Origin: Pelagibacteraceae bacterium GOM-A1
Lineage (GTDB): Bacteria; Pseudomonadota; Alphaproteobacteria; Pelagibacterales; Pelagibacteraceae
Assembly: GCA_001704065.1 (NCBI GenBank)
Contig: LHBX01000057.1
Span: 3,634-67,633, forward strand
Direction of reading: 5' to 3'
DNA length: 64,000 bases
Position numbers and translations under genes: made by a program
Notes under the pieces: generated by a model
The model's input: the letters and a program-made list of their open reading frames with translations, nothing else
Told to the model about the DNA's origin: nothing
Databases searched by the model: none
Part shown: positions 3,365 through 52,818 of the stretch, one piece after another
Position numbering within the stretch: the stretch's first letter is position 1
How the letters are laid out: each line of letters starts with the position of its first letter

Positions 3365-4345
3365 TTATTTACTTAATTTTCTTAGTTTTTTTAGGATATC
3401 ACCTAACTCCTTTGGGATATTTGATGAAAATTCTAATCTTTCCTCTGTCCTTGGATGGTCAAAACCTAGCTGTTTTGCATGCAAAAATTGTCTATCAAGA
3501 TTTAAAATTTTATTATTAAGATCTTCATCAATGTTTTTAAATTTTTTAAATTTCTTTTTATATTTTTTATCTCCAAGAATATTATTACCTTTGTATGACA
3601 TATGAACTCTTATTTGATGAGTTCTTCCAGTTTCTAATTTACATTGTATAAAACTAAATGTTGGAACTTTATCATTCTCAAAAAGCTCTAATGTTTCATA
3701 ATGTGTAATTGCTTTTTTACCTTTGGTTGATGATACTTCCATGATCTGTCTATTTTTCGAACTTCTGGTTATGAATGTTTCAATTGTTCCTTTTTGAGGC
3801 CTTAATTTTCCCCAAATTAAAGTTTGATAAACTCTAGTTATAGAATGTTCAGAGAATTGAAGAGATAATTTTTCATGAGTTGAGTTATTTTTTGCTATTA
3901 CAATTAATCCAGAAGTATCTTTATCAATTCTATGAACTATACCAGGTCTCAGTTCATCTCCAATATCAGATAAATTTTTGCTATCATAATTCATTAACGC
4001 ATTAACTATCGTATTATCATAATTACCAGCACCAGGATGCATTGAAATTCCAGAAGGCTTGTCAATTACGATTAAGTCTTCATCTTCATAAATTATATTT
4101 AATTTAAAATCGTATGGTTTTAAGCTTTGTTTCTTAGGTTCAACAATTTCAAGTTCAATTTTGTCATTTAATTTAGTCTTAATTGAAGGGTCTAAGACTA
4201 TTCTCTCATTAATTTTTAATTTACTGTCTAGTATTAAATTTTTTACTCTAGTTCTGCTTAAGCTTTTATCAAGATTTGCTAATATTGTGTCTACTCTCTT
4301 GTTACTATCATCCTCTTTAATAATAAAATTGATGATATTTTTCAT
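3365..4345 (-). CDS. rluD: RluA/RluD family 23S rRNA pseudouridine synthase
   Basis: N-terminal S4-like domain, IVHRIDKDTSG catalytic Asp motif, TGRTHQIRVH, GD..Y, QFLHA. Confidence 0.9.
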   Translation of the reverse strand: MKNIINFIIKEDDSNKRVDTILANLDKSLSRTRVKNLILDSKLKINERIVLDPSIKTKLNDKIELEIVEPKKQSLKPYDFKLNIIYEDEDLIVIDKPSGISMHPGAGNYDNTIVNALMNYDSKNLSDIGDELRPGIVHRIDKDTSGLIVIAKNNSTHEKLSLQFSEHSITRVYQTLIWGKLRPQKGTIETFITRSSKNRQIMEVSSTKGKKAITHYETLELFENDKVPTFSFIQCKLETGRTHQIRVHMSYKGNNILGDKKYKKKFKKFKNIDEDLNNKILNLDRQFLHAKQLGFDHPRTEERLEFSSNIPKELGDILKKLRKLSK

Positions 4346-21088: not shown

Positions 21089-21174
21089 GCGGTCATGCTG
21101 AAACTGGTAGACAGGCACGGTTGAGGGCCGTGTGGGCCTAGCCCATGAGAGTTCAAGTCTCTCTGACCGCACCA
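21089..21174 (+). tRNA. tRNA-Leu(GAG)
   Basis: Acceptor GCGGTCA/TGACCGC, anticodon stem CACGG/CCGTG with loop TT-GAG-GG, long variable arm TGGGC-CTA-GCCCA, GTTCAAGTC T-loop, encoded CCA. Confidence 0.96.
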
Positions 21175-21192
21175 AAAACAAATATTTATTAA

Positions 21193-21452
21193 GGGGCGTT
21201 CTGTTGCCAGGTGCCCCGGACCCCGTAACTTAATTAATAAATTAATTAAGCTGCAAGTGCGTAACTTTCGTTAGCATTTATAAATTAGCCCTTCACGGCG
21301 GAACAATACCGAACGAAAGAATAACTTTTAGTCATCCGTCGATCCTAATTCACCCCCATAAGTTGAAAATGGTGGAGGTGGTGGGTACTGCCCCCACGTC
21401 CGTAATGGTTATTACGAAATTCGTTTATCGTCATAGTTGGAAAACCAACATT
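21193..21452 (-). ncRNA. ssrA: two-piece circularly permuted tmRNA (outer ends approximate)
   Basis: On the minus strand the acceptor piece ends ...CACCTCCACCA at 21370, a 12-nt spacer follows, and the coding piece starts GGGGGTGAA at 21357. Stem GGGGGTG/CACCTCC has the G3-U70 Ala determinant; helix GTTATT/AATAAC and TTCGTT/AACGAA joins the pieces; GGCAACAGAA near the 3' end. Confidence 0.95.
21246..21275 (-). other. tmRNA tag reading frame (A)ANESYALAA
   Basis: ATAAAT followed by GCT AAC GAA AGT TAC GCA CTT GCA GCT TAA; the stop codon lies in the CTTAATTAAT/ATTAATTAAG hairpin. Confidence 0.92.
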
Positions 21453-21493
21453 AATAATATAAAACCAAATTCAACAGATTCAATAAATTATTC

Positions 21494-22445: not shown

Positions 22446-23126
22446 TTAATTTTTTAAGTAATTTTTATTTTTATATATTTGGTCCTCATAATTCCATAAT
22501 GGATCTTTAAATTTCTTTATTAATTTAAAATCATTTTTTATTAGAACTTTTTGGATAGCAGGAAATGAATATCCTTTATATAAATATTTATCTAGTTGTT
22601 TTTCAATTATAATAAATCCAATTTTTTTAAAATTTTTTTTCGAAATACCTTTTAAAACATCTATCTCAAAACCTTCCGTATCAATCTTAAGTATATCAAT
22701 TTTCTTTATTCGATATTTATTAAAAAAAAAATTTATTGGATAGATATTTACTTTTACTTTTTTTATTTTTTCTTTAAGAAAATGAAAGAAGAAAATATTT
22801 CTCAAATTTTTTTTTAAGGTAGGTTTTTGAAAACTCGAACTGCTTGCATTTGGCATAATAAAAAAAGTCTTTTTTTCAATTTTTTTACCAATACCAACAC
22901 GGAAATACTTATTTTTACTTTTTTTTTCAAGTCTTTTGAAATAATTTATGTTTGGTTCAAAAAAAAAAACTTTACTTTGTTTAAAGCTATTACCAAATTG
23001 TCCTTTGAATGCCCCAATATCAAAAACTATATCTGCCTTACACTTATCTTTAATAAATTTTGTTACTTGACTCATATGAAATAAAAATGTGTAGCTAAAA
23101 ATAAAGGTAAGAAAACGGGCTATCAT
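22446..23126 (-). CDS. FkbM family SAM-dependent methyltransferase
   Basis: VFDIGAFKG, FEPN, IDILKIDTEGFE. Confidence 0.88.
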   Translation of the reverse strand: MIARFLTFIFSYTFLFHMSQVTKFIKDKCKADIVFDIGAFKGQFGNSFKQSKVFFFEPNINYFKRLEKKSKNKYFRVGIGKKIEKKTFFIMPNASSSSFQKPTLKKNLRNIFFFHFLKEKIKKVKVNIYPINFFFNKYRIKKIDILKIDTEGFEIDVLKGISKKNFKKIGFIIIEKQLDKYLYKGYSFPAIQKVLIKNDFKLIKKFKDPLWNYEDQIYKNKNYLKN

Positions 23127-23275
23127 AAATATTAATACATATAAATAATTAAGTTATTTATGGGTTAACGAATATCACCCTTATTTAAAAAAAAAAGTTA
23201 TAAATATTTGTAAATTATCTTTTGTTTAATATGATAATAATTGTAATTTGTTTAGATTATTTTATTTAGTATAAA

Positions 23276-24460
23276 TTGAAGAATGTAATTATAACTGATG
23301 GTTTTTGGAGGAAATCTCTAAGTTGCGTTAGATCTCTTGGAAAAGCAGGATATAACGTTACAGTTTTGGGTGACTCTGTTTTTACAACCGCTTTTTGGAG
23401 TGGATTTACAAACAATAGAGTTTTAAGTCCATCGTCACAGGAAAGTCTATCTGATTTTAACAGCTTTGTAACAAAATATATTGAAAAAAAAAATTTTGAG
23501 TTAGGAGAAAAAATAATATTGATACCAAGTGAAGACAGTACCATTAATTGGTTATCAGCACGCAGAAGAAAAATTTCTAAACACGCAAAATTTCTAATTC
23601 CAGACCAAAATTCTCTTAAACTTGCTCAGTCTAAAGAGTCCACTTTGAGAGCGGCTAACAAGATTGGAATTGATATTCCAGAGACATACTTTTTTAAAAA
23701 TTACAATCAATTCAAAAAAAAAATCCATTTTTTATCGAGAAAAAATTTATTAAAAAAATATATAATCAAACCAGATGTGGGTTCAGGTTCTATTGGAATT
23801 ATTTACCCAAAAGAAAATAATATTAAAAATTTAAGCTTTCACTGGAAAAAATTTGGTAAATTATTAATTCAAAAAAAAATTAATTCAAAAGGAAATGGCA
23901 TTGGTGTTTCAATGATATTTGATAAAAATTCAAGGTGTATTGCCAACTTTTCTCATAAACGAATTAAAGAATATCCATTGAAAGGTGGACCAAGCACAAT
24001 TCGTAAAAGCATAAAAAACAAAAATTTACAAAATTTATCAAAAAAACTTTTACAAAAACTTAATTGGAAAGGAGTTGCTATGGTTGAGTGGAAAATAGAT
24101 ATAGATGAAAAAAAAATAAAATTATTAGAGATTAACCCAAGGTTTTGGGGAAGTCTTGAATTAGCTGTTAGATCAGGTGTAAATTTTCCACTATTATATG
24201 CACATCTCTCCAGTGGACGAAAAGTAAAAGTAATCAAAAGATATAAACCAGGTGTAATATGTAGATGGATATTTCCAGGTGACATACTTAGATTTATAAA
24301 TGACAAAAATAATAAAGAAAATTTGTGGAATTTTATAAAATCAATATTTAAAGAAGGTGAAGAGTATGATTCAAAAGATATTAGGGGTTTCATATCCTCT
24401 ATATTTTGTAATTTATTTTCAGTATTTAAACCCAAATATTGGAAATACCTGACAAGATAA
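23276..24460 (+). CDS. ATP-grasp carboxylate-amine ligase (polysaccharide-cluster type)
   Basis: IIKP..GSGSIGI, LIQKKI, GVAMVEWK, LLEINPRFWGS; TTG start. Confidence 0.85.
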   Translation: MKNVIITDGFWRKSLSCVRSLGKAGYNVTVLGDSVFTTAFWSGFTNNRVLSPSSQESLSDFNSFVTKYIEKKNFELGEKIILIPSEDSTINWLSARRRKISKHAKFLIPDQNSLKLAQSKESTLRAANKIGIDIPETYFFKNYNQFKKKIHFLSRKNLLKKYIIKPDVGSGSIGIIYPKENNIKNLSFHWKKFGKLLIQKKINSKGNGIGVSMIFDKNSRCIANFSHKRIKEYPLKGGPSTIRKSIKNKNLQNLSKKLLQKLNWKGVAMVEWKIDIDEKKIKLLEINPRFWGSLELAVRSGVNFPLLYAHLSSGRKVKVIKRYKPGVICRWIFPGDILRFINDKNNKENLWNFIKSIFKEGEEYDSKDIRGFISSIFCNLFSVFKPKYWKYLTR

Positions 24461-24538
24461 AAATATATATAATAAAATTATCTAGAAACTATTTACTTAG
24501 AAAGTAATGTGATACCTTAAGAAAAAAATTGTATTAAT

Positions 24539-25297
24539 TTGACTGATAATTTAATTTTAATTTTGGCACATCAAGATGATGAAATGTTTATTTTTAATAG
24601 AATACATCATCATAAAAATAAAAAAAAAATTTTTATTTTTTATATGACATCAGGGCTTGATGAAAATTTAAAAAAAGACGAAGTAAATCATCGAAATATT
24701 GAAAGTTTAAAAGTTTTATTAAAAATGGGAGTTTCAAAAAGAAACATTCGATTTATTGGAGGAAAATTATCTATAAAAGTTAACACACTTTACAAGTCTA
24801 TGGAAAAAGCTTTCAATGAGTTATCAAGGGAAGTTAATAAAATTAGAGGCCCAAAAGTAATTATAACTCATGCTTTAGAGGGAGGTCATGAAGATCATGA
24901 TGCATGTTATTATTTAACAAAAAAATTATCATTTAAAAAAAAAGATGTTTTAAAAATTTATCAATTTCCTGCTTATCATGGGAAAAATTTACCTTTCATT
25001 TTTTATAAGGTACAAAGCCCTTTGAAAGAAAATGGTTCAATTAATTCAAAAAAAATATGTCTTTTAAGCCGATTTAAATTTATATATTTATTATTTACTT
25101 ATGTTTCGCAAATCAAAGTTTGGATTGGCTTATATCCATTTATTATTTTAAATTTTTTATTAAAAAGAAATGATAAGCTACAAGAAGTCCCTAAAAATAT
25201 ATTAATAAGAAAACCACATTTAGGGAAGTTATTGTATGAAAAAAGAGGATTTTGCAAATATTTAGTATTTAAAAAATATGTAAAAAAATTTTTATAA
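24539..25297 (+). CDS. PIG-L/LmbE family de-N-acetylase
   Basis: LAHQDDE (variant of PHPDDE) and GGHEDH zinc-binding motifs, R..E helix; TTG start. Confidence 0.8.
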   Translation: MTDNLILILAHQDDEMFIFNRIHHHKNKKKIFIFYMTSGLDENLKKDEVNHRNIESLKVLLKMGVSKRNIRFIGGKLSIKVNTLYKSMEKAFNELSREVNKIRGPKVIITHALEGGHEDHDACYYLTKKLSFKKKDVLKIYQFPAYHGKNLPFIFYKVQSPLKENGSINSKKICLLSRFKFIYLLFTYVSQIKVWIGLYPFIILNFLLKRNDKLQEVPKNILIRKPHLGKLLYEKRGFCKYLVFKKYVKKFL

Positions 25298-25298
25298 A

Positions 25299-26252
25299 AT
25301 GATAGAAAATAAATCTATTTGTATTGTAGTACCGGTATATAATGTTGGAAATAAAATTGTTGATTTTATTTCTTCAATTCCCGACTATGTTGATAAAATA
25401 ATAGTTATAGATGATAAATGTCCGCTTAAAAGTGGTTTAATTTTAAAAAAAAATACACCTGAAAATAAAAAATTAAACATCTTATTTAACGAAAATAATC
25501 TTGGCGTGGGTGGTACTGTTAAAAGAGGTTACAATGAAGCTTTAAAAAGTAATGAGGATATAATTATAAAAATAGATGGTGATGGTCAAATGGATCCTGA
25601 CCAAATACCAATCTTAACAAAATCAATAATTAATGGTTATGATTATTCAAAAGGCAACAGGTTTCTTAACAATACTTATATAAAAAATTATCCATTAGAA
25701 AGGTTTTATGGTAATAAATTTTTGTCTTTATTTTCAAAATTATCTACTGGCTATTGGGATATATTTGATCCAATTAATGGGTTCACAGCAATCAAAAGAG
25801 AAAAACTAAATAATATAAATTTAGATGATATAGATAATGGTTATTTTTTTGAGACAGATATGCTTTTTAATTTATATCTTTTAAAATCAAAAATTAAGGA
25901 TGTGCCAGTAAAAATTAAATATTTTAAAAATCATAGACAGAACTTAAGTATTTTTAGAGAAAGTTTTAATTTTTTTTTTAAAAATCTCCATAGATTATTA
26001 AAGAGAGTAAAAATTTCTTATCTTAGTAATAATTTTGGATTGCCAGGTTTATTATTTTCTATTGGCTCTATCTCTTTGATTTTTACATTATTTTATGGTG
26101 GATTTAATTGGTTTTATTATTCATTTATAAAAGAAACATTTGCTCCAAATGGAGTAATTACTTTTAGCGCCATTTCATTAATTGTTGGATTATTTTCTAT
26201 GTTTATGTTCATGATTATAGATAATAATAATAATCCCAACTTAAAAAAATGA
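25299..26252 (+). CDS. GT2 polyprenol-phosphate glycosyltransferase (DPM1/ArnC-like) with two C-terminal TM helices
   Basis: VVPVYN, VIDD, N.GVG, IDGDGQMDP, KGNRF, D..NGF, Y.FETDML; hydrophobic C-terminus. Confidence 0.85.
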   Translation: MIENKSICIVVPVYNVGNKIVDFISSIPDYVDKIIVIDDKCPLKSGLILKKNTPENKKLNILFNENNLGVGGTVKRGYNEALKSNEDIIIKIDGDGQMDPDQIPILTKSIINGYDYSKGNRFLNNTYIKNYPLERFYGNKFLSLFSKLSTGYWDIFDPINGFTAIKREKLNNINLDDIDNGYFFETDMLFNLYLLKSKIKDVPVKIKYFKNHRQNLSIFRESFNFFFKNLHRLLKRVKISYLSNNFGLPGLLFSIGSISLIFTLFYGGFNWFYYSFIKETFAPNGVITFSAISLIVGLFSMFMFMIIDNNNNPNLKK

Positions 26253-27553
26253 ATAAAAAAAATCTTATTGTTTTCGAAATTAACGAATTTGATTACAAAT
26301 TTTTCATTTATGGTTCTAAAAAATATAAATTTCCGCAAATAAAAAATTTTTTTAAACTTAAAAAGAAAAATACGATTACCAAAGATAATAAGGAAGGATT
26401 AAACTTAGATCCATGGGTACAATGGGTGTCGGCTCATACAGGCAAAGATTCAAATAAACATAAAGTTTTAAGGATCGGGCAAGTTTTAGACAAAGATATA
26501 AGACAAGTATGGGAAAAACTTCCAAACAAGAAAAGAGTTTCAGTATGGGGGCTCTTTAACTCGATTTTAAGAAAAAAAAATAATATTGATTTATTTTATC
26601 CTGATCCTTGGAGTTTTACACAAAAAGCTTATCCAGAAAATCTAAATTCCTTTTTAGCTTTGCCAAGATATTATGCAAAAAATTATCCAAATTTTAATTT
26701 ATCAGATATTTTGAATTGTAGTTTAAAATTATTAAACAAAGTATTATTTTCAGGAATAATTTTTTTTATAATTAAAAATATTATTAGTTTAACATCTATT
26801 TTTTTTCGTTCAGGGTTAAGTTCATTCAATATTTATTTCTTATTTGATCTTTTTTCTTTAATTTTGTTGCGAGAACAACTTAATAAAAATAGATCAGATC
26901 TAGTAATCATTGGTTTAAATTCATTTGCTCACTATCAGCATAATTACTGGAATGAAAAAAAATACGAAAAAATTTATTTTTGGTATTTAAATCAAATGAT
27001 AATTGAAATGAATAAAATTTCTCAAAATTACAATAGCAAAATTGTGTTTAATGGTTTCTCACAAAAAAAAGTCAAAGTAAATTATTATCCTCGCATTATT
27101 GATCAAAAGAAATTTTTTAAAGATCTTAAAATAAATTATATTAGGCATGAAATAAATATGACATATGGAGGTACTATTTATTTTAAAAGTTTAAATGACA
27201 AATATAAAGCAATAAAAATTTTAAAACAAATTGGATATAATAATAAAAGATTGTTTGATGTTTCAGATTTTAATAATGAAAAAAAAATTTTTTATTCAAT
27301 AAACTTTGTTTTTATAAATAAAAAAAATTTTAAAGAGATAAATAAATTACCAAAGAAAAATATCGTAAATGATAAATTTATTTTTAAAAAAATAATCAAA
27401 AACATAAAACTCAATCAATCAACAAGTAGACACTTGCAAAATGGATTAATTTTTTTTAGTTCTGAAATAAAATTAAAAAAAACTTATTTTATAAGAAATT
27501 ATTTTTATAACCAAAAACTATACAATTTAATTTTAGATTATTTTAAAAATTAA
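26249..27553 (+). CDS. uncharacterised alkaline-phosphatase/nucleotide-pyrophosphatase superfamily protein
   Basis: N-terminal LIVFEINE metal-site strand, LDPWVQWVSAHTG (W.S..TG nucleophile region), AHYQH second-metal-like motif. Confidence 0.5.
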   Translation: MNKKNLIVFEINEFDYKFFIYGSKKYKFPQIKNFFKLKKKNTITKDNKEGLNLDPWVQWVSAHTGKDSNKHKVLRIGQVLDKDIRQVWEKLPNKKRVSVWGLFNSILRKKNNIDLFYPDPWSFTQKAYPENLNSFLALPRYYAKNYPNFNLSDILNCSLKLLNKVLFSGIIFFIIKNIISLTSIFFRSGLSSFNIYFLFDLFSLILLREQLNKNRSDLVIIGLNSFAHYQHNYWNEKKYEKIYFWYLNQMIIEMNKISQNYNSKIVFNGFSQKKVKVNYYPRIIDQKKFFKDLKINYIRHEINMTYGGTIYFKSLNDKYKAIKILKQIGYNNKRLFDVSDFNNEKKIFYSINFVFINKKNFKEINKLPKKNIVNDKFIFKKIIKNIKLNQSTSRHLQNGLIFFSSEIKLKKTYFIRNYFYNQKLYNLILDYFKN

Positions 27554-28353
27554 TAAAAATTTATAACTTCGGATTTCCAACTACATTTTTCGTTGATAAA
27601 AACAAAATTTTCTCCATTAATGTATGTCTTGAATTTTAAATTATTTTTTGAAAATGATTGAAATATTTTATTTGTGGCAAACGGGCTATCATTATCTGGA
27701 CATTCAATAATAATCATATTTACACTCTTGATCCATTCAGCTGCACTGTCATCAAATATAACACTCTCTGATCCTTCAATATCAATTTTAAGAATATCAA
27801 TTTTATTAATTTTATGATCATCTATTATATTTTTGATAGTTGTTGTCGGAACTACATCTGATAAACCATTTTTTTTACTTATCTTAAAAGTTTGAGAGCT
27901 CGTCTCAAAATAATTATTTTCAATACTTACTTTATCTACTTTATTCCAAATGGCTTTATTAATTGAAATAATGTTTTTTTTATTTTCAATGTTTTTTAGA
28001 AGAACTTTGTAATTATTTAACTCTGGCTCAACACATATAATTTTAGAATCTGGAAATAATTTATTAAATCTTAAAGTTTCAACACCAATATTTGCACCGA
28101 TATCTAAAATAATTTCTGGCTCTTCTCCAAAAGTATTAATGTTTATTTGTTGATTGTAAAAATGACCAACAACACCATAATCTATTTTGCTTCTCCAATA
28201 GATATCTCCAAATTTCTTTGTTTTTAGACAAGATATTTCATCACTCGGAAAGAATTTTAAAAATAAAATTTTGATAGTGTTTATGAGACCCAAGTTATGG
28301 ATTGATATGGAATATCTTGTAAGTGGTGTTAAAATATTTATTAAAAATTTCAT
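27550..28353 (-). CDS. second FkbM family methyltransferase
   Basis: ILDIGANIGV, CVEP...NY, NKAIW, IDILKIDIEGSE. Confidence 0.9.
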   Translation of the reverse strand: MKFLINILTPLTRYSISIHNLGLINTIKILFLKFFPSDEISCLKTKKFGDIYWRSKIDYGVVGHFYNQQININTFGEEPEIILDIGANIGVETLRFNKLFPDSKIICVEPELNNYKVLLKNIENKKNIISINKAIWNKVDKVSIENNYFETSSQTFKISKKNGLSDVVPTTTIKNIIDDHKINKIDILKIDIEGSESVIFDDSAAEWIKSVNMIIIECPDNDSPFATNKIFQSFSKNNLKFKTYINGENFVFINEKCSWKSEVINFY

Positions 28354-28360
28354 AATTTAT

Positions 28361-30073
28361 TTATTTGATGAACAAATAGTGATCGTTATAAAAAAATAAT
28401 GTTTTAAATTTATTATCCCTATAATAATCTCGCATTTCTTCACCAATTAAATTTTGGCAATAAGAACTTTTTATTAACAAATAATATTTTTCTTCATTCT
28501 TTAAAAGATCTTTGCAATCGTGTTTGACTATTACTCTGTTTTCAATTTTTGGTAGATATCTAAAATCCATTTGATCGGGAATAGATAAAATCTTGAAATT
28601 ATTTTTATCAACATAGTGATAAATTAATGAGTTAAGAACTTTATCTCCTCTCTCATTTTTTTTATTAAGGTTTGAAGAAATCAATCTTTCAGTACTCCTA
28701 TAATTATTTAAAATTAATAGTATTAAAATTATCGAAATAAAACCCAAAAAATTAAAGAAGTAAATTGGATATTTGAAATTATAAATTTTAAATTTATTAA
28801 CAAGTTCATAAACTCCAAAAGAAATATTGATAGCTAGAAATGGAACGATTAATGAAATATGCCTATTATCGTAACCAAAATAAAAGTAATAAAGAGCAAA
28901 AAATGGTAATGAAATAATTAAAAATAATTTTAATGAGTGTTTATTAATTAAACCTAGAAAAATCAAGGCCAGGAAAGGTATCCACATAAAACCAAAAATA
29001 TTCTCAAGTTTTTCTAAAAGTGAACCTTGATTTAAAGATATTATGAAACCTAAATTACTTGTTTGAGTCTTCAGAAATAAAATATTATATGCTTTACTGG
29101 TTATCCAAATAAAAGGACCAAATATTGGTATGATTATAAAAATAGTATTTTTTATAACTTCTCTAAAATTTTTTTTATTTATAAAAAAAAATAAGTAGAA
29201 TATTGGAAAAATAAAACAAATAAAAAAACCAGTTTGTTTAAGAATTGGACTTGAAATAACTATTAATCCAGAAATTATATACTCAAAATAACTCAATTTA
29301 TTTTTATATAAATAAAGTAAGTAAAATACAAAAGCAGTAGAACTAGATGTTAGGAATAATAAAGGTTCATTTAAACCTATATACATCCCATAATTTCTAA
29401 AAATATAAACAAAAACAAATAAAGTAATTAAAAGAGATATTTTAATATAGTTTTGAAACTTGTTAGCTAAAACTGAAGTTCGATAAAAAATAAAAAAAAT
29501 CCAAATTGGATAAATTATCAATATTGCTCTGGTAAAAAATTCTACATCAGTATTATTTATAAATTTATAAACTACCGACATTAGAATAGACATCCCCGGA
29601 GTATAAAATCCAAAGTCCTTAGGGCTGCTATTAAACCAGAAAATACTCCAAGGATTGAAGCTACGTATTGCATCACCAATATGAATTACTTCACCTAAAG
29701 TTTTGAGCCCAAAATAACAAATAAATACAAAAAAAACTAAATTAGCTAAATCTATTAAATTAAATTTAAATGCTATATTATTTTTTAGTTTTATAAAGTT
29801 TTCTAAATGCAGAATTGAATTTCTAAAGTATGTGCTTCTGTATAAATTTAAAAATATAATTATTAGTTCTAGCCCCACCAATATTAAAATACTAGTTTGA
29901 TAATAAATTTTGAAAAAAACAAGCAATGAGACTATGATGGTATTTAGTGTTATACTTAGTGGTAGTGATAATATTATACAGTCAATGAACTTTAATTTTC
30001 GATTAAACGATAATAAAGTAATTCCTGGTAAAAACCAAACTTGTAAAATTCCTAATATTCCAAATAGAAACAT
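28361..30073 (-). CDS. multi-pass membrane protein, probable GT-C fold (ArnT/PMT-like) glycosyltransferase
   Basis: About 12-13 hydrophobic segments, FLPG in TM1, acidic loop motifs GDA and NEP, LKQTG, DNRH before a late TM helix, soluble C-terminal domain. Confidence 0.5.
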   Translation of the reverse strand: MFLFGILGILQVWFLPGITLLSFNRKLKFIDCIILSLPLSITLNTIIVSLLVFFKIYYQTSILILVGLELIIIFLNLYRSTYFRNSILHLENFIKLKNNIAFKFNLIDLANLVFFVFICYFGLKTLGEVIHIGDAIRSFNPWSIFWFNSSPKDFGFYTPGMSILMSVVYKFINNTDVEFFTRAILIIYPIWIFFIFYRTSVLANKFQNYIKISLLITLFVFVYIFRNYGMYIGLNEPLLFLTSSSTAFVFYLLYLYKNKLSYFEYIISGLIVISSPILKQTGFFICFIFPIFYLFFFINKKNFREVIKNTIFIIIPIFGPFIWITSKAYNILFLKTQTSNLGFIISLNQGSLLEKLENIFGFMWIPFLALIFLGLINKHSLKLFLIISLPFFALYYFYFGYDNRHISLIVPFLAINISFGVYELVNKFKIYNFKYPIYFFNFLGFISIILILLILNNYRSTERLISSNLNKKNERGDKVLNSLIYHYVDKNNFKILSIPDQMDFRYLPKIENRVIVKHDCKDLLKNEEKYYLLIKSSYCQNLIGEEMRDYYRDNKFKTLFFYNDHYLFIK

Positions 30074-30118
30074 GTTAATTTATTATCTCTACCTCACTCT
30101 TCTATAAATTAAAGATTT

Positions 30119-31021
30119 TTATTTAGAGTTTAAATAATCTTTTATTTGCAGCTTTAATCCTTCCTCTATTTTTATTGGATTAAAATTAAAATCTTTAATT
30201 GCTTCATCAAAAGTGAATATTTTATCTTCACCTTGTCTTCTGACTTGTGATGAATTTATTGGGAATTTTCCAAAAAACAAAATATTTAAAATTTTAACTA
30301 ATATTGCGCTAAAATTTATCGGTAATCTTATAAATATAATTTTTTTCTTTAAAGTAGCTTCAATAATCTTTAAAATTTTTGAATATTCAATAGAATTTTT
30401 GCCAGCTAAATTATAGCACTTGTTAAATGTAACATTTTTATTTTTAATGACATTAAAGTAAGATTTGGATAAATCATTTACATATATTGGTTGTAATAAA
30501 TTTTTCCCATTTCCAAATATTGGAAAAATCTTATATTTATCTAAGTACTTAATTAATCTAGAAATATTAATATCTCTTTTGTTACCATAAATCATTGTTG
30601 GACGAAGTATAGTTATATTTTTGTTTTTTTTTAAAATATCTTTCTCAATATTAATTCTATTTAAAATAAATTTTGATTTATTTTTTGAGAAGATCATTGT
30701 AGAGTGAACTAAAATAAACCATTTAACTTTTTGTTTTGATCCAAATTCAACAATTTTTGGACTATTTTCCATATTAGCTAAATTTAATACAGTATCAATG
30801 TTATCAAAACATTTTTCCAAAAAGTTAGTATCATTAATATCACCATTTAATATTTTAAAATTTAATCTAAATTGATTGAAATATTTATTTTTACTTTTAT
30901 CTCTAGATACAACAGTAATTTCTCCTTCAAATTTTTCTTTTTCTAATATTTTTAAAAAATAATTTGCTGTATTTCCTCTCGCCCCAAAAATTATAAGTTT
31001 TTCAAAATTTTGAAGTAACAT
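30119..31021 (-). CDS. NAD-dependent epimerase/dehydratase-like (atypical SDR)
   Basis: IIFGARGNTA Rossmann motif, ILRPTMIYG, IFGNG..LLQPIYV.DL, YNLAG. Confidence 0.82.
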   Translation of the reverse strand: MLLQNFEKLIIFGARGNTANYFLKILEKEKFEGEITVVSRDKSKNKYFNQFRLNFKILNGDINDTNFLEKCFDNIDTVLNLANMENSPKIVEFGSKQKVKWFILVHSTMIFSKNKSKFILNRINIEKDILKKNKNITILRPTMIYGNKRDINISRLIKYLDKYKIFPIFGNGKNLLQPIYVNDLSKSYFNVIKNKNVTFNKCYNLAGKNSIEYSKILKIIEATLKKKIIFIRLPINFSAILVKILNILFFGKFPINSSQVRRQGEDKIFTFDEAIKDFNFNPIKIEEGLKLQIKDYLNSK

Positions 31022-48361: not shown

Positions 48362-49123
48362 GTGGACTTTATATTCGTAATAGTTTTTGGAGGACTATGG
48401 GGTAGTTTTGCAAATGTTTGCATATATAGATTTCCAAACAATGAAGGCGTTGTATCCGGAAGATCGTTTTGCCCAAATTGTAAAACAAAAATCAATTGGT
48501 ACGATAATATTCCTCTAATTTCTTATATTGTTCTAGGAGGAAAGTGTAGGAGCTGTAAAAAAAAAATATCCATTCAATACTTTATTGTAGAAACTTTAAG
48601 TATAATTCTATTTACTTCAATTTATTATAAATTTGGTGCTTCACTCACCACTTTATATTTAATAATACTTTCTCTATCCTTTTTAATTATTTTTTTTATA
48701 GATCTTAAACATTTTATAATTCCAAATGTTTTAACTTTTTTTTTAATGATAATAGGATTTATAAAATCTTTTGATCCAAATTTAAATTCAATGTTCCCCA
48801 ATTATATGAACTCTTTAATTGGAGGAATTTTTGGTTATGGAATTATATGGTCGATCATATTTATTTATAAGGCTATTAGAAAAAAAGAAGGAATGGGATT
48901 AGGCGATGCCAAGTTATTTGGAGCAATTGGATTTTGGTTTGGATGGGTATCTATTCCTTTTATAATATTTTTGTCTTCTATAACTGCACTTATTCATGTT
49001 ATTCCTAGTTTATTAAATAGATCAAAAAATATATCTTCACAAATTCCCTTTGGTCCGTATATCATTTTAGCCACATTGATATATGTTATTTTTGAAAGTA
49101 ATATTAAATCTTTAATATTTTAA
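48362..49123 (+). CDS. pilD: type IV prepilin peptidase/N-methyltransferase (A24)
   Basis: GSF.NVCIYR, RS.CP.C...I.WYDNIP, KCRSC, ID..H, GMG.GD.KL, IPFGP. Confidence 0.95.
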   Translation: MDFIFVIVFGGLWGSFANVCIYRFPNNEGVVSGRSFCPNCKTKINWYDNIPLISYIVLGGKCRSCKKKISIQYFIVETLSIILFTSIYYKFGASLTTLYLIILSLSFLIIFFIDLKHFIIPNVLTFFLMIIGFIKSFDPNLNSMFPNYMNSLIGGIFGYGIIWSIIFIYKAIRKKEGMGLGDAKLFGAIGFWFGWVSIPFIIFLSSITALIHVIPSLLNRSKNISSQIPFGPYIILATLIYVIFESNIKSLIF

Positions 49124-49135
49124 GGTAATATCAAA

Positions 49136-50023
49136 ATGATATTTAATGAAATAATAGCTAATACATCGAAAATTATAATTTCTAATGTAGATAAAATTAA
49201 ATTGACATTGGCTGCAATAGTTTCTGAAGGAAGTATTTTAATTGAGGACTATCCAGGATCAGGCAAAACAACATTTGCAAAAGCTATTACGCAAAATCTT
49301 GGTCTTAACTTTAAAAGGATACAGTTTACTTCTGATTTATTACCCAGTGATATTCTTGGATTTAATATTCTTTCAGATGGAAAGTTAAACTTTCAACAAG
49401 GTCCAATTTTTACAAATATAGTTTTAGCAGATGAACTTAATCGCGGAAGTCCAAAATCACAAAGTGCCTTCTTGGAGGCAATGGAAGAAAAAAATGTTTC
49501 AATAGATGGTGAAAGCTATAAACTGCCTGAACCATTTTTTGTTATTGCTACTCAAAATCCTATGGATTATTCAGGTACAAGTTCTTTACCAGATTCCCAG
49601 CTTGATAGATTTATGATTTCATTTTCTTTGTCTGATTTAAATGAAAACGATAAAATTTTGATGTTAAAAAATACAAGTAAATTAAATGGTGCTTCATCAA
49701 AAGCTGTTGATTGGGAGACAATTAAACAAAAAAAAAATCAACTAACCATAAAAGATGAAATTTTTAAATATGTTGTTGAAATAGAGCAAGTAATTCAAAC
49801 CCTTGAACAAAGGATTTATATTTCTGCAAGATGTTTAAAGCAAATCTTGGATTTAGCTAAGGGTTGGGCAATTATTCATGAAAAAGATTATGTAACTCAT
49901 CAAGATATTAAGGAAACTCTGCCTTACATATTAAGACATAGAATTAAATTTCTTAACCAGGAGGATAAAATGAGCTTCATTAATGAGGAAATACTTCAAA
50001 AAATTAAAATAACCAATGGTTAA
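49136..50023 (+). CDS. moxR: MoxR family AAA+ ATPase
   Basis: PGSGKT, RIQFTSDLLPSD, LADELNR, ATQNP, LP.SQLDRF. Confidence 0.93.
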   Translation: MIFNEIIANTSKIIISNVDKIKLTLAAIVSEGSILIEDYPGSGKTTFAKAITQNLGLNFKRIQFTSDLLPSDILGFNILSDGKLNFQQGPIFTNIVLADELNRGSPKSQSAFLEAMEEKNVSIDGESYKLPEPFFVIATQNPMDYSGTSSLPDSQLDRFMISFSLSDLNENDKILMLKNTSKLNGASSKAVDWETIKQKKNQLTIKDEIFKYVVEIEQVIQTLEQRIYISARCLKQILDLAKGWAIIHEKDYVTHQDIKETLPYILRHRIKFLNQEDKMSFINEEILQKIKITNG

Positions 50024-50936
50024 TCAGCTAGTACAGAGGTTAACGAACTTAGACTTTAAAAATTTAATCAATCTTAAAAAAAAACTTAAAGTTTACATAT
50101 ATCCCAATCTTCAAGGACTATTATTAGGACTGTTTGTATTTTTTTGCTTTTTAATATCTGTATTTTATGAAAATAACTCAGGACTTCTTATTTCAATTGT
50201 TATTTTCTTTATTTTCTTTATTTCAATTTTTATCTCACATCAAAATATTAACAATTTAAGAATAAATTTTCTAACAGAATACTTAGTTGAAGCAAATAAA
50301 ACAGAACATATAAACTTTAAGATAATTAATGATGCAAAAGAGAAAAAATTAAATATCGATTTAGAGATCAATAAATCAATTTTACAAAATTTTAATTTAT
50401 CAGATAAAATAAAAGAATTTAATATAAAATATAATTACGACAAAAGGGGCGTCTATTCTTTAAATAAAATAATTTTAAAATCGATATATCCATTTGGAAT
50501 AATAAGGACAAAAATAAATTATCAACCTTTTAGTAAAGTATATGTATTTCCACAAAAATTAATTCCTAATCAAGAATTATTACAAGAATTTAAAATTCAC
50601 CAAAATAATAATTCTGATGAATTTGACGGTATAGATGAATACAAGAAAGGAGATAGTTACTCAAAAATCGCTTGGAAAAAATCAACTATTGGAGACAAAA
50701 AATTTGTAAAAGAATTTAAGTCTTTTAAAAGCTCGAAAAAATCAATCCTAGATTTAAATAAATACAGTCATATAGAATTTGAGAAATTATTAAGTTACTC
50801 AGTATTTATTTTAGATTATTATTTCACAAAAAGTCTAAATTTAACCTTTAAACACAAAGATAGTGTGTTCAATTTAAACGAAAATAAAAACTCTCTAAAT
50901 AAAATTTTAAAGTATATTTCAAATGTTAAAAATTAA
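50016..50936 (+). CDS. DUF58 domain protein
   Basis: Two N-terminal TM helices, S.YPFG, EFDGIDEYKKGD...IAWK.S; follows moxR. Confidence 0.82.
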   Translation: MVNQLVQRLTNLDFKNLINLKKKLKVYIYPNLQGLLLGLFVFFCFLISVFYENNSGLLISIVIFFIFFISIFISHQNINNLRINFLTEYLVEANKTEHINFKIINDAKEKKLNIDLEINKSILQNFNLSDKIKEFNIKYNYDKRGVYSLNKIILKSIYPFGIIRTKINYQPFSKVYVFPQKLIPNQELLQEFKIHQNNNSDEFDGIDEYKKGDSYSKIAWKKSTIGDKKFVKEFKSFKSSKKSILDLNKYSHIEFEKLLSYSVFILDYYFTKSLNLTFKHKDSVFNLNENKNSLNKILKYISNVKN

Positions 50937-52818
50937 ATCGCAAAATATTAGTCTTCTTACTTATATTATATTATTTTTTTGCTTAGTTTCGTTGTCTACA
51001 GATTTAATATTAACTAATAAAATATTTTGGGGCACTTTATTTTTTTTAAGTTTTATTTTTTCAAAAATACACTTTAAGTTCAAGTCCATAGCAGTTGGAG
51101 TATTTGCTTTGGGAGCTCTATATATTCAATTGATTTTCAATCAATATGTTTTGTCCGAAGATTTTTTTCTAAACTGCCTTGGAGTTTTGCTAATAATAAA
51201 GTTCTCAGAACTTAAAAATAAAAATAATCTTTTGTCATATAATTTAATCTCTATGATTATTGCTGTAGCAAGTTTAATTAAGGGTCAAGATATACTAAGT
51301 ACATTAAACTCCTTTCTAATCTTAATACTTTTAGTTGTTAACATGTATCTTATTCAACAAAAGGAAATTCTCGATTTCAGTTTAAAAAATATTTTAAAAT
51401 ATTTAGGATTTGCTCTTAGTATATTTCCGATTATTATTATTTTTTATCTTGTATTTCCTAGGGCAGAGGTAAATTTCAGATTATTTGATACATCTGCAAG
51501 CTCAGTAGGTATTCCAGATAGCATAGATCTTGGTTCATTTAGCCAGTTTTCGAACTCAGACGAAGAAGTTTTTACTTTAATAAATAACAATTTTAAGAAG
51601 GAGGATCTTTATTTTAGGGTCAAAATCTTTGATTATATGGAAAAAGATCAATCTTGGAGACCTTCCTCAAGTTACTATCTTTTTAGTGAATTTAAAAATT
51701 CTTTGAGAATAAATGGTAATGAAGATTTAAATAAAAATTATCAGATTATTTTAGAACCATATAAAAAAAAATGGATACCGAGTTTAAAAAACTCAAAATT
51801 AGTCACTAATGATATTCAAATTACAAAAGATTATTTTAACCAGTCTTTTGTAAGTAGGGAACTAATTGACAGAAAGAAGAAATTAATTTTTAAAATGAAT
51901 AAATCTGATTATTCTTTGGATAACCCACTAAAAAATTATTATACTTTGTTACCAGAAAATGTATCCCCAAAAATAAAAGAATGGGTAAATAAAAATAATG
52001 TAAGTACCAAAGAAGAATTCATTGAAAAAATTTATAAAAGATTTTCTGATGGATCATATTTTTACAACCTTAGTCCTCAGATAAACTCAAATAATAAATA
52101 TGAAAACTTTTTCTTTAATTCTAAAGAAGGATACTGCGAATATTATGCAGGAATGTTTGTCTTACTTACAAGATTAGCACAAATTCCAAGTCGGATAGTG
52201 ACAGGTTACTATGGTGGAGATTTAAATGAGATTGGGAATTTTTTCCAATTTAAACAAAAAGATACGCATGCTTGGGCAGAAGTTTGGTTTGATGAAAGAG
52301 GGTGGGTTAGAATTGATCCAACTAGGGCAATACCTAATTCTAATATTAGAAACTCATTAAATAATTATTTTGTAAATAATGATAAATTTTCAAGCTCGAT
52401 ATTTTCTAATAATTTTTTTAAAACAATTAATTTTTATTTTAACTATGTTGATTTTGTATGGACTCAACATTTACTATCATATGATGATAATGAAAGAAAA
52501 AATTTTATAAAAGAATTACTAAATTTAAATTTTTCAAAAATCATTGTTTGGATATTCGTACCAATATTATTATTTGTAAGCATAAAATTATTATATAATT
52601 TCAATTCAACTAATTTGATGAGGCTAAAATTAGCTTTCATTCTTCTAGGAAAGAAAAGAAAACTTCAAATAAAAAATTCGGATACTATCCAAGAGATTTA
52701 TCTTAAACTTATGGAAAAAGATAAAACAAAATACCAAAATTTTTTTAAATTTTACGAGAAGCAGATCTACTCAAATAACCAAATAAGTTTTATAAAAGTT
52801 TTAAAGTTAGTTTTTTAA
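50923..52818 (+). CDS. TgpA-like membrane transglutaminase-superfamily protein (DUF3488 + transglutaminase domain)
   Basis: N-terminal multi-TM region, FPR, YFR, catalytic triad GYCEYYA / HAW.EV / DPT. Confidence 0.88.
   Translation: MLKIKSQNISLLTYIILFFCLVSLSTDLILTNKIFWGTLFFLSFIFSKIHFKFKSIAVGVFALGALYIQLIFNQYVLSEDFFLNCLGVLLIIKFSELKNKNNLLSYNLISMIIAVASLIKGQDILSTLNSFLILILLVVNMYLIQQKEILDFSLKNILKYLGFALSIFPIIIIFYLVFPRAEVNFRLFDTSASSVGIPDSIDLGSFSQFSNSDEEVFTLINNNFKKEDLYFRVKIFDYMEKDQSWRPSSSYYLFSEFKNSLRINGNEDLNKNYQIILEPYKKKWIPSLKNSKLVTNDIQITKDYFNQSFVSRELIDRKKKLIFKMNKSDYSLDNPLKNYYTLLPENVSPKIKEWVNKNNVSTKEEFIEKIYKRFSDGSYFYNLSPQINSNNKYENFFFNSKEGYCEYYAGMFVLLTRLAQIPSRIVTGYYGGDLNEIGNFFQFKQKDTHAWAEVWFDERGWVRIDPTRAIPNSNIRNSLNNYFVNNDKFSSSIFSNNFFKTINFYFNYVDFVWTQHLLSYDDNERKNFIKELLNLNFSKIIVWIFVPILLFVSIKLLYNFNSTNLMRLKLAFILLGKKRKLQIKNSDTIQEIYLKLMEKDKTKYQNFFKFYEKQIYSNNQISFIKVLKLVF

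Follow-up and report, generated by a model that had tools for sequence, protein, structure and literature searches.

Lipid-linked sugar routes underlie several described systems of bacterial surface modification. Three-component Gtr systems consist of a flippase (GtrA), a family 2 glycosyltransferase (GT2; GtrB) and a glycosyltransferase of the GT-C fold (GtrC). ArnC/ArnD/ArnT place 4-amino-4-deoxy-L-arabinose (L-Ara4N) on lipid A, Francisella FlmF2/NaxD/FlmK place galactosamine (GalN) on lipid A, and the mycobacterial and corynebacterial PpgS/Rv3632/Rv3779 set places GalN on arabinogalactan. Here, an eight-gene island is described from a 64,000-nucleotide stretch of DNA (hereafter the window; contig LHBX01000057.1, forward-strand positions 3,634–67,633) of Pelagibacteraceae bacterium GOM-A1, a Pelagibacter/SAR11-type genome with ~30% GC whose proteins have relatives in Candidatus Pelagibacter and Pelagibacteraceae assemblies. 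SAR11 bacteria are among the most abundant in the ocean; differences between their strains gather mainly in genes for surface glycans, which phage pressure is thought to have shaped, and almost all of the chemistry of these genes is yet to be worked out. The island encodes a short-chain dehydrogenase/reductase (SDR), a GT2, a PIG-L/LmbE-family de-N-acetylase, an ATP-grasp ligase, two FkbM-family methyltransferases, a protein of the alkaline phosphatase superfamily (AlkP-like protein) and a GT-C-fold membrane protein. We consider it probable, at about 0.6, that the island is a cassette variant of a SAR11 surface-glycan modification locus with a lipid-linked sugar route like those of Gtr, Arn and PpgS–Rv3779.

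The likeness to Gtr systems lies in a GT2 like GtrB and dolichol-phosphate-mannose synthase (DPMS) and a GT-C protein within one locus. The island differs from Gtr in having no GtrA or MATE flippase gene, in a GT-C protein of no named family, and in its additional deacetylase, ligase, two methyltransferases and AlkP-like protein. Pentofuranose Gtr-type systems founded family GT136, and their ORF13 SDR epimerase is a precedent for cytoplasmic remodelling of a lipid-linked sugar (PMC11127046). The Arn and Francisella routes resemble the island in combining an undecaprenyl-phosphate-aminosugar synthase, N-acyl removal and GT-C transfer, and related SAR11 loci extend the Arn likeness by carrying formyltransferase and DegT aminotransferase genes. 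ArnD is a NodB-type deacylase and NaxD is of the YdjC type, whereas the island deacylase belongs to PIG-L/LmbE; the island also has no PMT_2/ArnT signature and no ArnE/F, and its ligase suggests re-acylation. No Fmt, DegT or EamA gene was found in the window with Pfam or NCBIfam. As far as gene families can tell, the island follows the logic of Arn without belonging to the Arn pathway. With PpgS/Rv3632/Rv3779 it shares the scheme of a polyprenyl-phosphate-N-acetylhexosamine (HexNAc) synthase, deacetylation and GT-C transfer; host and acceptor differ, and that pathway has no AlkP-like, ligase or methyltransferase gene. The deacetylase of the mycobacterial GalN pathway is unidentified, and in Corynebacterium the decoration is required for infection by one phage (PMC9671496). 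By gene content, the island is not a member of the Gtr, Arn, Francisella or PpgS/Rv3779 systems, because it has no flippase gene, another deacylase family, no named GT-C family and extra enzymes.

Three further comparisons are useful. In the streptococcal GacI/GacJ/GacK/GacL and GacH cluster, a GT2 that forms undecaprenyl-phosphate-N-acetylglucosamine (GlcNAc), a GT-C protein and an AlkP-superfamily enzyme occur together (10.1101/337519), so the combination of GT2, GT-C and AlkP is not unprecedented. The SAR11 AlkP-like protein differs from GacH in resembling nucleotide pyrophosphatases/phosphodiesterases (NPP), in having neither a signal peptide nor an N-terminal transmembrane domain, and in its predicted cytoplasmic location. 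GacH is a polytopic LtaS-type protein with an extracellular catalytic domain and adds glycerol phosphate after transfer. In mycothiol and bacillithiol synthesis a PIG-L enzyme (MshB/BshB) exposes the amine of a GlcNAc conjugate, which an ATP-dependent ligase then acylates; the substrates are soluble, the ligases are not ATP-grasp enzymes, and these pathways lack the lipid carrier and the GT-C protein. With eukaryotic glycosylphosphatidylinositol (GPI) assembly the island shares no more than family names: its GT2 does not resemble PIG-A, and a cytoplasmic location is predicted for its AlkP-like protein. Literature searches returned no description of PF01663 or the AlkP-like family in such clusters, of DUF6541/DUF1420, or of this gene combination, of which an earlier note on this DNA had likewise known no description.

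Positions 22446–31021 hold eight open reading frames (ORFs) exactly where the earlier note had placed them, and the family that it gave for each is confirmed, six through Pfam and two (the 434-aa and 570-aa proteins) through fold alone. The GT2 matches its Pfam family at E 1.6e-16. Its closest solved structure is Pyrococcus furiosus dolichyl-phosphate-mannose (Dol-P-Man) synthase (E 8e-15, residues 4–260), three ArnC entries follow (E 3.5e-4 to 2e-3), and at E ≤ 0.01 its matches in the Protein Data Bank (PDB) are limited to these two enzymes. NCBIfam matches are weak and comprise AglJ, ArnC, PpgS (E 1.9e-6) and a Dol-P-hexose transferase. Hydrophobic segments at residues 246–264 and 289–307 are read as two C-terminal transmembrane helices, which are typical of the DPMS/ArnC subclass. 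Short (240-aa) GT2s that adjoin AlkP-like genes elsewhere have Dol-P-Man synthase as their sole structure match (E 1.4e-8). On these matches the GT2 is assigned to the polyprenyl-phosphate-sugar class (GtrB/DPMS/ArnC), in agreement with the core logic of the earlier note, in which a DPM1/ArnC-like GT2 was followed by PIG-L and then by a GT-C protein.

The 570-aa membrane protein has ~13–15 transmembrane segments and a C-terminal alpha/beta domain of ~100 aa. It has no Pfam match, PMT_2 included, and no NCBIfam match, and PDB sequence searches with it and with the AlkP-like protein, as single sequences and as profiles, gave nothing meaningful; only fold comparison was informative. Its AlphaFold2 (AF2) model has a pLDDT of 75.4 and a pTM of 0.72. 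In a Foldseek comparison with the PDB, the best 19 matches are all GT-C enzymes, led by STT3/PglB/AglB (E 7e-4 to 2e-2) and followed by PMT1/2/4 and EmbA/B, with noise such as G-protein-coupled receptors (GPCRs) below them; no Wzy, WaaL, SEDS, flippase or transporter fold occurs among the significant matches. The modelled GT-C fold is supported but not strongly, and the comparison points the same way as the earlier note, which had called the protein GT-C-like. Residues D134 (in an 'HIGDA' motif), E69, K279 and R404 are, among others, invariant across 13 relatives, and one distant relative (P0019) has a DUF6541 match below threshold.

Comparison of the interval between mrp and thyX across SAR11 indicates how the island is built. 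In loci L093–L098 (positions 10001–14187 of L093) only three genes lie in this interval, for an SDR, an FAD/amine-oxidase-like protein of 497 aa and a GT-C protein of 593 aa, the last of which belongs to the GT-C family of the window (HMM E 1e-132). In L001–L003 and L054 it contains an SDR, an AlkP-like gene, PhyH, a second epimerase, a short GT2, a metallo-beta-lactamase (MBL)-fold protein and a GT-C gene, so that SDR, AlkP-like, GT2 and GT-C genes recur at mrp–thyX with differing accessory genes. Metagenome contig L009 carries the window island (100% identity across the AlkP-like gene), L010 is a sister island, and L011 has the window gene set minus the FkbM genes; co-occurrence of the gene set elsewhere, which the earlier note had named as a check, is seen in these three and, as related sets, in other loci. 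Read from gene order, the SDR and GT-C genes are the conserved bookends of a SAR11 glycan-modification locus and the genes between them are an exchangeable cassette. The window holds the most elaborate of at least three such cassettes. The self-contained eight-gene unit of the earlier note is accordingly given up, since SDR and GT-C are conserved at mrp–thyX while the middle varies in other SAR11 genomes. A profile scan of genome contigs with the GT-C protein found four loci (one in SAR11 and three in distant Planctomycetota), which are too few for statistics.

Two side observations concern the same neighbourhood. Other SAR11 lineages have a different cassette of AlkP-like, GT2 and m393 genes beside ppdk (L014, L015, L022, L024, L039, L052, L056, L077, L084, L085), which marks a second insertion point a few kilobases from the window site within a conserved ppdk, nadC, nadA, tmRNA, thyX and mrp neighbourhood. 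The 497-aa FAD protein has a Glf-like N-terminal motif, and an FAD oxidase with an SDR near a GT-C gene recalls the epimerisation of a lipid-linked sugar by DprE1/DprE2. A DprE1/DprE2-like role for the FAD oxidoreductase and SDR is attractive for the minimal locus; it was set aside for the window, from which the FAD enzyme is absent.

The donor-editing enzymes have clear family signatures. PIG-L scores 48 bits in Pfam against a cut-off of 28.2 and carries the zinc motifs AHxDD(E) and HxxH in the form of AHQDDE (residues 10–15) and HEDHD (residues 117–121 of the 252-aa ORF), the latter kept in 25 relatives. A moderately hydrophobic stretch spans its residues 181–207; a C-terminal membrane anchor was considered there and dropped, as the hydrophobicity is moderate (maximum 1.45). 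The ATP-grasp protein matches Pfam at E ~1e-10 and a PRK12767-type NCBIfam model at E 3e-22, below cut-off. The first FkbM protein (Methyltransf_21 E 1.4e-20, TIGR01444 E 2.8e-18, GC 0.21) also occurs in L009, and the second (Methyltransf_21 E 1.2e-14, TIGR01444 E 1.8e-26) stands beside the GT-C gene in L005, L009 and L079 as well. Among 25 loci with PIG-L, its neighbours include a GNAT gene in 13, an ATP-grasp gene in three, an AlkP-like gene in 14 and a GT2 in 10. In sister island L010, a GNAT gene on the opposite strand flanks PIG-L at the end held by ATP-grasp in the window, and L011 retains ATP-grasp. Because PIG-L is usually paired with GNAT or ATP-grasp, and with GNAT in L010, the amine that it exposes is probably re-acylated rather than left free, which would amount to N-acyl exchange. 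The earlier note had given the ATP-grasp and FkbM genes no role; its parallel with Arn and NaxD is retained for the logic of the scheme and abandoned for the free cationic amine, since PIG-L pairs with GNAT or ATP-grasp.

Of all the elements of the island, the uncharacterised AlkP-like protein that accompanies polyprenyl-phosphate sugar synthases is the most interesting. It has no match in Pfam or NCBIfam. Its AF2 model (pLDDT 94.6) contains the AlkP core alpha/beta fold, and Foldseek found 159 PDB matches at E ≤ 0.001 (top E ~1e-6, TM-score ~0.43), of which the best 50 listed all belong to the NPP branch: ENPP1/2/6/7, autotaxin, snake-venom phosphodiesterase (PDE), Xanthomonas (Xac) NPP and phosphonoacetate hydrolase (PhnA). 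PF01663 is matched weakly by five of 32 relatives, and above cut-off by the more distant P0360 (28.4 vs 23 bits). An exhaustive profile search at E ≤ 1e-3 places ~1,600 clusters at 50% identity in the family, which ranges from SAR11 to Xanthomonadales and keeps the full 430-aa AlkP core throughout. Across 223 relatives that diverge to ~30% identity, 17 polar positions are invariant or conservatively replaced: N12, E13, D/E54, Q58, S/T61, H71, N104, D119, D/E200, N224, H228, Q230, H231, Q272, R282, T/S305 and H395. Of these, H71, H228, H231 and H395 do not vary, and position 305 keeps a hydroxyl residue. N224 and N268 presumably occupy the positions at which Asp metal ligands are expected. The conserved polar set resembles an active site, which argues for catalysis and makes a purely structural role unlikely.

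The chain of the AlkP-like protein opens directly with strand 1, and neither a signal peptide nor a transmembrane domain precedes it. An internal hydrophobic hairpin spans residues 166–207, and a hydrophobic segment lies near the same position in the three distant relatives examined. A natural single-chain fusion, P0258 (807 aa), joins a GT2, a GtrA_DPMS_TM domain and an AlkP-like domain in that order. The GtrA transmembrane domain usually has four helices; if it does so in the fusion, the AlkP-like domain that follows it lies on the side of the GT2, which is cytoplasmic. Given the missing signal peptide and this domain order, the AlkP-like protein is most likely cytoplasmic. The role of an extracytoplasmic transferase of the EptA/LtaS/GacH/PIG-N type was rejected on the same grounds, that is, no signal peptide, no N-terminal transmembrane domain and the order of domains in P0258. 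Our best guess from sequence is that it catalyses a phosphoryl-type reaction that depends on metal and takes place at the surface of the membrane, on the undecaprenyl-phosphate-linked sugar or on the GT2 substrates. More broadly, and tentatively, the family could be a large undescribed AlkP branch that provides cytoplasmic, membrane-embedded partners of polyprenyl-phosphate sugar synthases and adds or removes a phosphoryl-type substituent before flipping, while PIG-L and ATP-grasp swap the N-acyl group on the carrier. A separate relative, P0277 (530 aa), joins an AlkP-like domain to a C-terminal histidine phosphotransfer (Hpt) domain, an unexpected link to phosphorelay signalling.

The partnership with GT2 enzymes is seen in gene order. 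In the window the GT2 and AlkP-like genes overlap by 4 bp. A metagenome scan anchored on the AlkP-like protein yielded 395 relatives, from which 80 loci were kept; neighbouring genes were called, clustered and annotated with Pfam by cluster representatives. The anchor tilts the sample towards loci with AlkP-like genes, so that AlkP-like presence itself carries no weight whereas GT2 linkage does. Of the 80 loci, 42 have a DPMS-like GT2 directly beside the AlkP-like gene and 61 have one no more than four genes away. When only the 58 loci with five or more genes are counted, 48 have a GT2 at this distance, 37 a polytopic membrane protein (390–605 aa) and 19 a PIG-L gene. Two modules recur: m393, GT2 and AlkP-like genes followed by PIG-L–GNAT or an MBL-fold gene, beside ppdk; and an Arn-like set of GNAT, PIG-L, GT2, m399, a variable group (Fmt, DegT, FAD oxidoreductase) and AlkP-like genes within large glycan clusters. 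SAR11 relatives combine Fmt, DegT, GT2, PIG-L and a polytopic protein in one locus. The association extends beyond SAR11 to loci with 22–66% GC, most of which have large polytopic and small EamA/GtrA-type proteins nearby. L089 (37% GC) holds a 9-TM (transmembrane segment) protein, a GT2 with GtrA_DPMS_TM, a methyltransferase, the AlkP-like gene, a small EamA protein, DegT and a PMT_2 GT-C protein; one gene separates its GT2 from the AlkP-like gene, and the two are adjacent in L090 and L091. In L091 (22% GC) the GT2 and AlkP-like genes lie between 9- and 11-TM proteins, and on a Thermomonas contig (66% GC) a 15-TM protein precedes a GT2, the AlkP-like gene and a small EamA protein. In L101 and L102 the AlkP-like gene belongs to glycan clusters that also hold a GtrA-like protein or a Wzm/Wzt transporter, and a GT2 lies 5–6 kb away. 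Small EamA or GtrA proteins are present in the non-SAR11 relatives L089, L090 and L101.

The polytopic neighbours give a hint of GT-C nature, with two weak PMT_2 matches in a Pfam scan of 23 of them. Alignment by hhalign among m393, m399, m391, m550, DUF1420, the window GT-C protein and PMT_2 returned no convincing relation, the best being m393 with PMT_2 at 22% probability. The unannotated polytopic families m393, m399 and m391 (8–9 transmembrane segments; L012–L088), encoded beside GT2 and AlkP-like genes, all carry near the N-terminus a 'GxDSxxYIxxA' motif with an invariant Asp; it is similar to the motif in the first loop of GT-C enzymes of the PMT_2/ArnT type. A block of an FAD/NAD oxidoreductase (~460–480 aa) and DegT, often with a formyltransferase or another small protein, also recurs beside AlkP-like genes (L016, L026, L030, L031, L035, L039, L044, L045, L050, L051, L058, L068). 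It is unusual for an FAD oxidase to stand upstream of a sugar aminotransferase where an SDR dehydratase would normally be found.

The SDR matches Pfam Epimerase at E 1.7e-9 and has 216 homologues, with relatives in Staphylococcus, Macrococcus and Paenibacillus at 40–44% identity. The homologues from Firmicutes lie in capsule-type clusters beside phosphoglycosyl transferases of 185–204 aa (Bac_transf, CapM-like). In Staphylococcus aureus, UDP-D-FucNAc is made by CapN, an NADPH reductase that associates with the membrane (PMC6441080). The likeness to CapD/CapN/CapM is drawn from staphylococcal SDR relatives at 40–44% identity beside a 185-aa Bac_transf protein and not from S. aureus CapN itself. 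The window differs from systems with CapN/WbpK-type UDP-4-keto-6-deoxy-HexNAc reductases in having no CapD-type dehydratase and no Bac_transf gene; no 4,6-dehydratase is present in the island, and Phe replaces the catalytic Tyr of the SDR Ser-Tyr-Lys triad. Action on a nucleotide sugar, perhaps a 6-deoxy-HexNAc, is plausible because the homologues in Firmicutes sit in a CapN/CapM-like arrangement. The earlier note had the SDR make the nucleotide sugar; the synteny keeps this plausible, and the substituted Tyr speaks against it. The best solved-structure match is NDUFA9, a subunit of respiratory complex I (E 3e-12). It is a separate observation that this NDUFA9-like SDR abuts and is co-oriented with mrp, a homologue of NUBPL/Ind1, that both counterparts are associated with complex I in mitochondria, and that SAR11 is alphaproteobacterial; this may be coincidence.

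A mechanism can be outlined from these assignments. A nucleotide HexNAc-type sugar would be supplied, possibly as 6-deoxy-HexNAc if the CapN-like SDR acts upstream, and the DPMS/ArnC-like GT2 would load it onto undecaprenyl phosphate at the cytoplasmic face. PIG-L would strip the N-acetyl group from the lipid-linked sugar, the ATP-grasp ligase would probably re-acylate the amine with a carboxylate (a GNAT enzyme would do so in sister islands), and the two FkbM enzymes would methylate the sugar. The AlkP-like enzyme, held to the membrane by its hydrophobic hairpin as partner of the GT2, may act on the lipid-linked intermediate or the donor in a phosphoryl-type, metal-dependent step at an undefined point alongside the GT2. 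The product would be flipped to the periplasm by a flippase that is not among the island genes, and the GT-C protein would transfer it there to an acceptor, for which lipopolysaccharide (LPS), another glycan and protein are candidates. Loading by the GT2 and transfer by the GT-C protein rest on family and fold evidence and co-occurrence. From the family or fold of each protein, gene order and co-occurrence we infer the remaining steps, including substrates, step order, the lipid-linked substrates of PIG-L, ligase and AlkP-like protein, and the acceptor.

Several findings weigh against a lipid-linked route of this kind, and some of them favour other explanations. In what is apparently the most frequent version of the locus in SAR11 (SDR, FAD oxidoreductase, GT-C), no GT2 lies within 10 kb, so the GT-C protein can function independently of the window GT2. 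No flippase gene (GtrA, EamA/ArnEF, Wzx or MATE) is present in the island, in which all eight ORFs are assigned. The match of the 570-aa protein to the GT-C fold is modest (TM-score 0.36–0.39, E ~1e-3, model pLDDT 75), with no sequence-level link to any named GT-C family, and the substrates of PIG-L, ATP-grasp and FkbM are taken as lipid-linked rather than nucleotide-linked by inference. The weak TM-score would suit tailoring of a nucleotide sugar in the cytoplasm, in which the GT2 is an ordinary Leloir transferase that acts on a growing glycan, the 570-aa protein a polymerase, ligase or other membrane protein, and there is no lipid-monophosphate donor. The GT2 family is very broad, the DPMS/ArnC similarity is moderate, and many related loci lie within large glycan clusters with Wzy_C, WecA-like and GT4 genes. 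Such a scheme is very unlikely, given that only DPMS and ArnC match the GT2 in the PDB at the threshold above, that the GT2 has two C-terminal helices, that the significant fold matches of the 570-aa protein include no Wzy, WaaL, SEDS or transporter, and that the pairing of GT2 with the AlkP-like protein is linked to polyprenyl-phosphate chemistry by neighbours and fusions with GtrA_DPMS_TM. In the AlkP-like protein, D/E54 apparently takes the approximate place of the canonical Thr/Ser nucleophile, expected at the N-terminus of the helix after strand 2, as judged from a comparison of sequence motifs with the NPP consensus (TG...HG after the nucleophile helix). This substitution, with that of canonical metal ligands as judged by motif inspection, would fit a non-enzymatic protein that tethers or activates the GT2 in the membrane, like DPM2/3, GacJ or Rv3632, as would its position beside GT2s (some of them short and without transmembrane helices), its conserved hydrophobic hairpin and the GT2 fusion in P0258. 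We regard a mere tether as distinctly unlikely, since the 223 relatives keep four His, four acidic residues and several Asn, Gln, Thr and Arg, either unchanged or with conservative replacements, a pattern that is active-site-like and not that of a scaffold, and since the full 430-aa core is retained.

Doubt also attaches to the two ends of the proposed lipid-linked route. The system might stop at deacetylation and deliver a free cationic amino sugar to lipid A or a different acceptor, as ArnC/ArnD/ArnT or FlmF/NaxD/FlmK do, with ATP-grasp and FkbM serving otherwise. The trio of GT2, deacetylase and GT-C is present for this, and in nine of the 25 loci PIG-L has no adjacent GNAT or ATP-grasp gene. 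PIG-L adjoins an acylating enzyme in the other 16, with GNAT in the place of ATP-grasp in L010; in the window ATP-grasp opens the same plus-strand operon as its first gene, 78 bp upstream of PIG-L, and the pattern mirrors the deacetylase-then-ligase logic of mycothiol and bacillithiol synthesis. A free-amine product is therefore unlikely. At the other end, the SDR is fixed beside mrp and may lie outside the pathway: its start codon directly abuts the mrp stop codon, it adjoins mrp in every SAR11 locus examined whatever the cassette, NDUFA9 provides its best solved-structure matches, and its catalytic Tyr position is Phe111 in the window (Phe in about half of the homologues). The SDR would then be a conserved partner of mrp, the NUBPL homologue, that marks the edge of the insertion site. 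We think this improbable, though not to the degree of the tether, because the GC content of the SDR gene (0.20) and its 56–64% identity between SAR11 lineages resemble those of island genes and not mrp, its closer relatives in Firmicutes (40–44% identity) lie in capsule clusters beside CapM-like transferases, and the GT-C gene is conserved at the locus alongside it.

The genes of the island are listed in Table 1. They form three transcription blocks: a lone FkbM gene, a plus-strand run (23276–27553) in the order ATP-grasp, PIG-L, GT2 and AlkP-like, and a minus-strand run from 31849 down to 27550, in which the housekeeping gene mrp comes first and SDR, GT-C and FkbM follow.

Table 1. Genes of the island, with positions in the window
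Feature	Coordinates	Strand	Assignment and remarks
FkbM-family methyltransferase 1, 226 aa	22446–23126	minus	Pfam Methyltransf_21; convergent with thyX
ATP-grasp amide ligase, 394 aa, TTG start	23276–24460	plus	Pfam ATPgrasp_Ter, ATP-grasp_3
PIG-L/LmbE-family de-N-acetylase, 252 aa, TTG start	24539–25297	plus	Pfam PIG-L
DPM1/ArnC/GtrB-like GT2, putative polyprenyl-phosphate sugar synthase, 317 aa	25299–26252	plus	Pfam Glycos_transf_2
AlkP-superfamily (NPP-like) protein, 434 aa	26249–27553	plus	Predicted fold
FkbM-family methyltransferase 2, 267 aa	27550–28353	minus	Pfam Methyltransf_21
GT-C-fold polytopic membrane protein, putative periplasmic transferase, 570 aa	28361–30073	minus	Predicted fold
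Atypical extended SDR, CapN/NDUFA9-like, 300 aa	30119–31021	minus	Pfam Epimerase, 3Beta_HSD, NmrA

The island lies between thyX/tmRNA and mrp and has 22.6% GC, compared with 30.4% for the rest of the window; its individual genes have 20–28% GC, and thyX, mrp and hflK beside it have 31–35%. Intergenic gaps of 149, 78 and 45 bp leave no space for a further gene. No Wzx, Wzy, Wzm or Wzt family was detected among the eight ORFs, as the earlier note had also reported. The left boundary consists of a tRNA-Leu gene, the tmRNA gene and thyX. The tmRNA (ARAGORN, marked '*', tag ANESYALAA) lies on the minus strand at 21155–21465 and shares 20 nt with a plus-strand tRNA-Leu(GAG) at 21089–21174; only thyX separates the tmRNA from the island. 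One SAR11 flexible island has been linked to a tmRNA in a published survey (PMC11796062), and the mrp–thyX locus is distinct from the large rRNA-associated hypervariable region HVR2 (10.64898/2026.04.03.716430). Direct repeats of att type or derived from the tmRNA were sought at both edges of the island, and only AT-rich noise came up. Scans for promoters and terminators gave no information in DNA this rich in AT; promoter-like sites are rarer here than in shuffled sequences. Viral contigs in IMG/VR contain no relatives of the AlkP-like or GT-C proteins, so a phage-borne origin is unsupported. GC is also low (23–25%) in a second stretch of the window, at 48362–52818, where the genes are those of a prepilin peptidase (A24), a MoxR AAA ATPase, a 306-aa protein that has no annotation and a membrane protein of the TgpA-like transglutaminase type. 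This stretch has no glycan genes and shows that type IV pilin processing is present.

The locus is a compact, testable module of a conserved transferase and exchangeable donor-editing cassettes, through which one genomic site could give rise to different surface decorations in SAR11. These decorations may contribute to phage evasion. The AlkP-like family is large and unannotated, and it is tied to DPMS/GtrB-type synthases by gene order and fusion beyond SAR11. If the proposed roles are correct, two new kinds of donor editing would be added to three-component glycosylation, and the island would offer a candidate type for lipid-linked HexNAc deacetylases that are still sought, such as that of the mycobacterial GalN pathway. 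Knowledge of the AlkP-like reaction would supply a missing piece in the enzymology of lipid-linked sugar donors, and thousands of glycan clusters could be better annotated with it.

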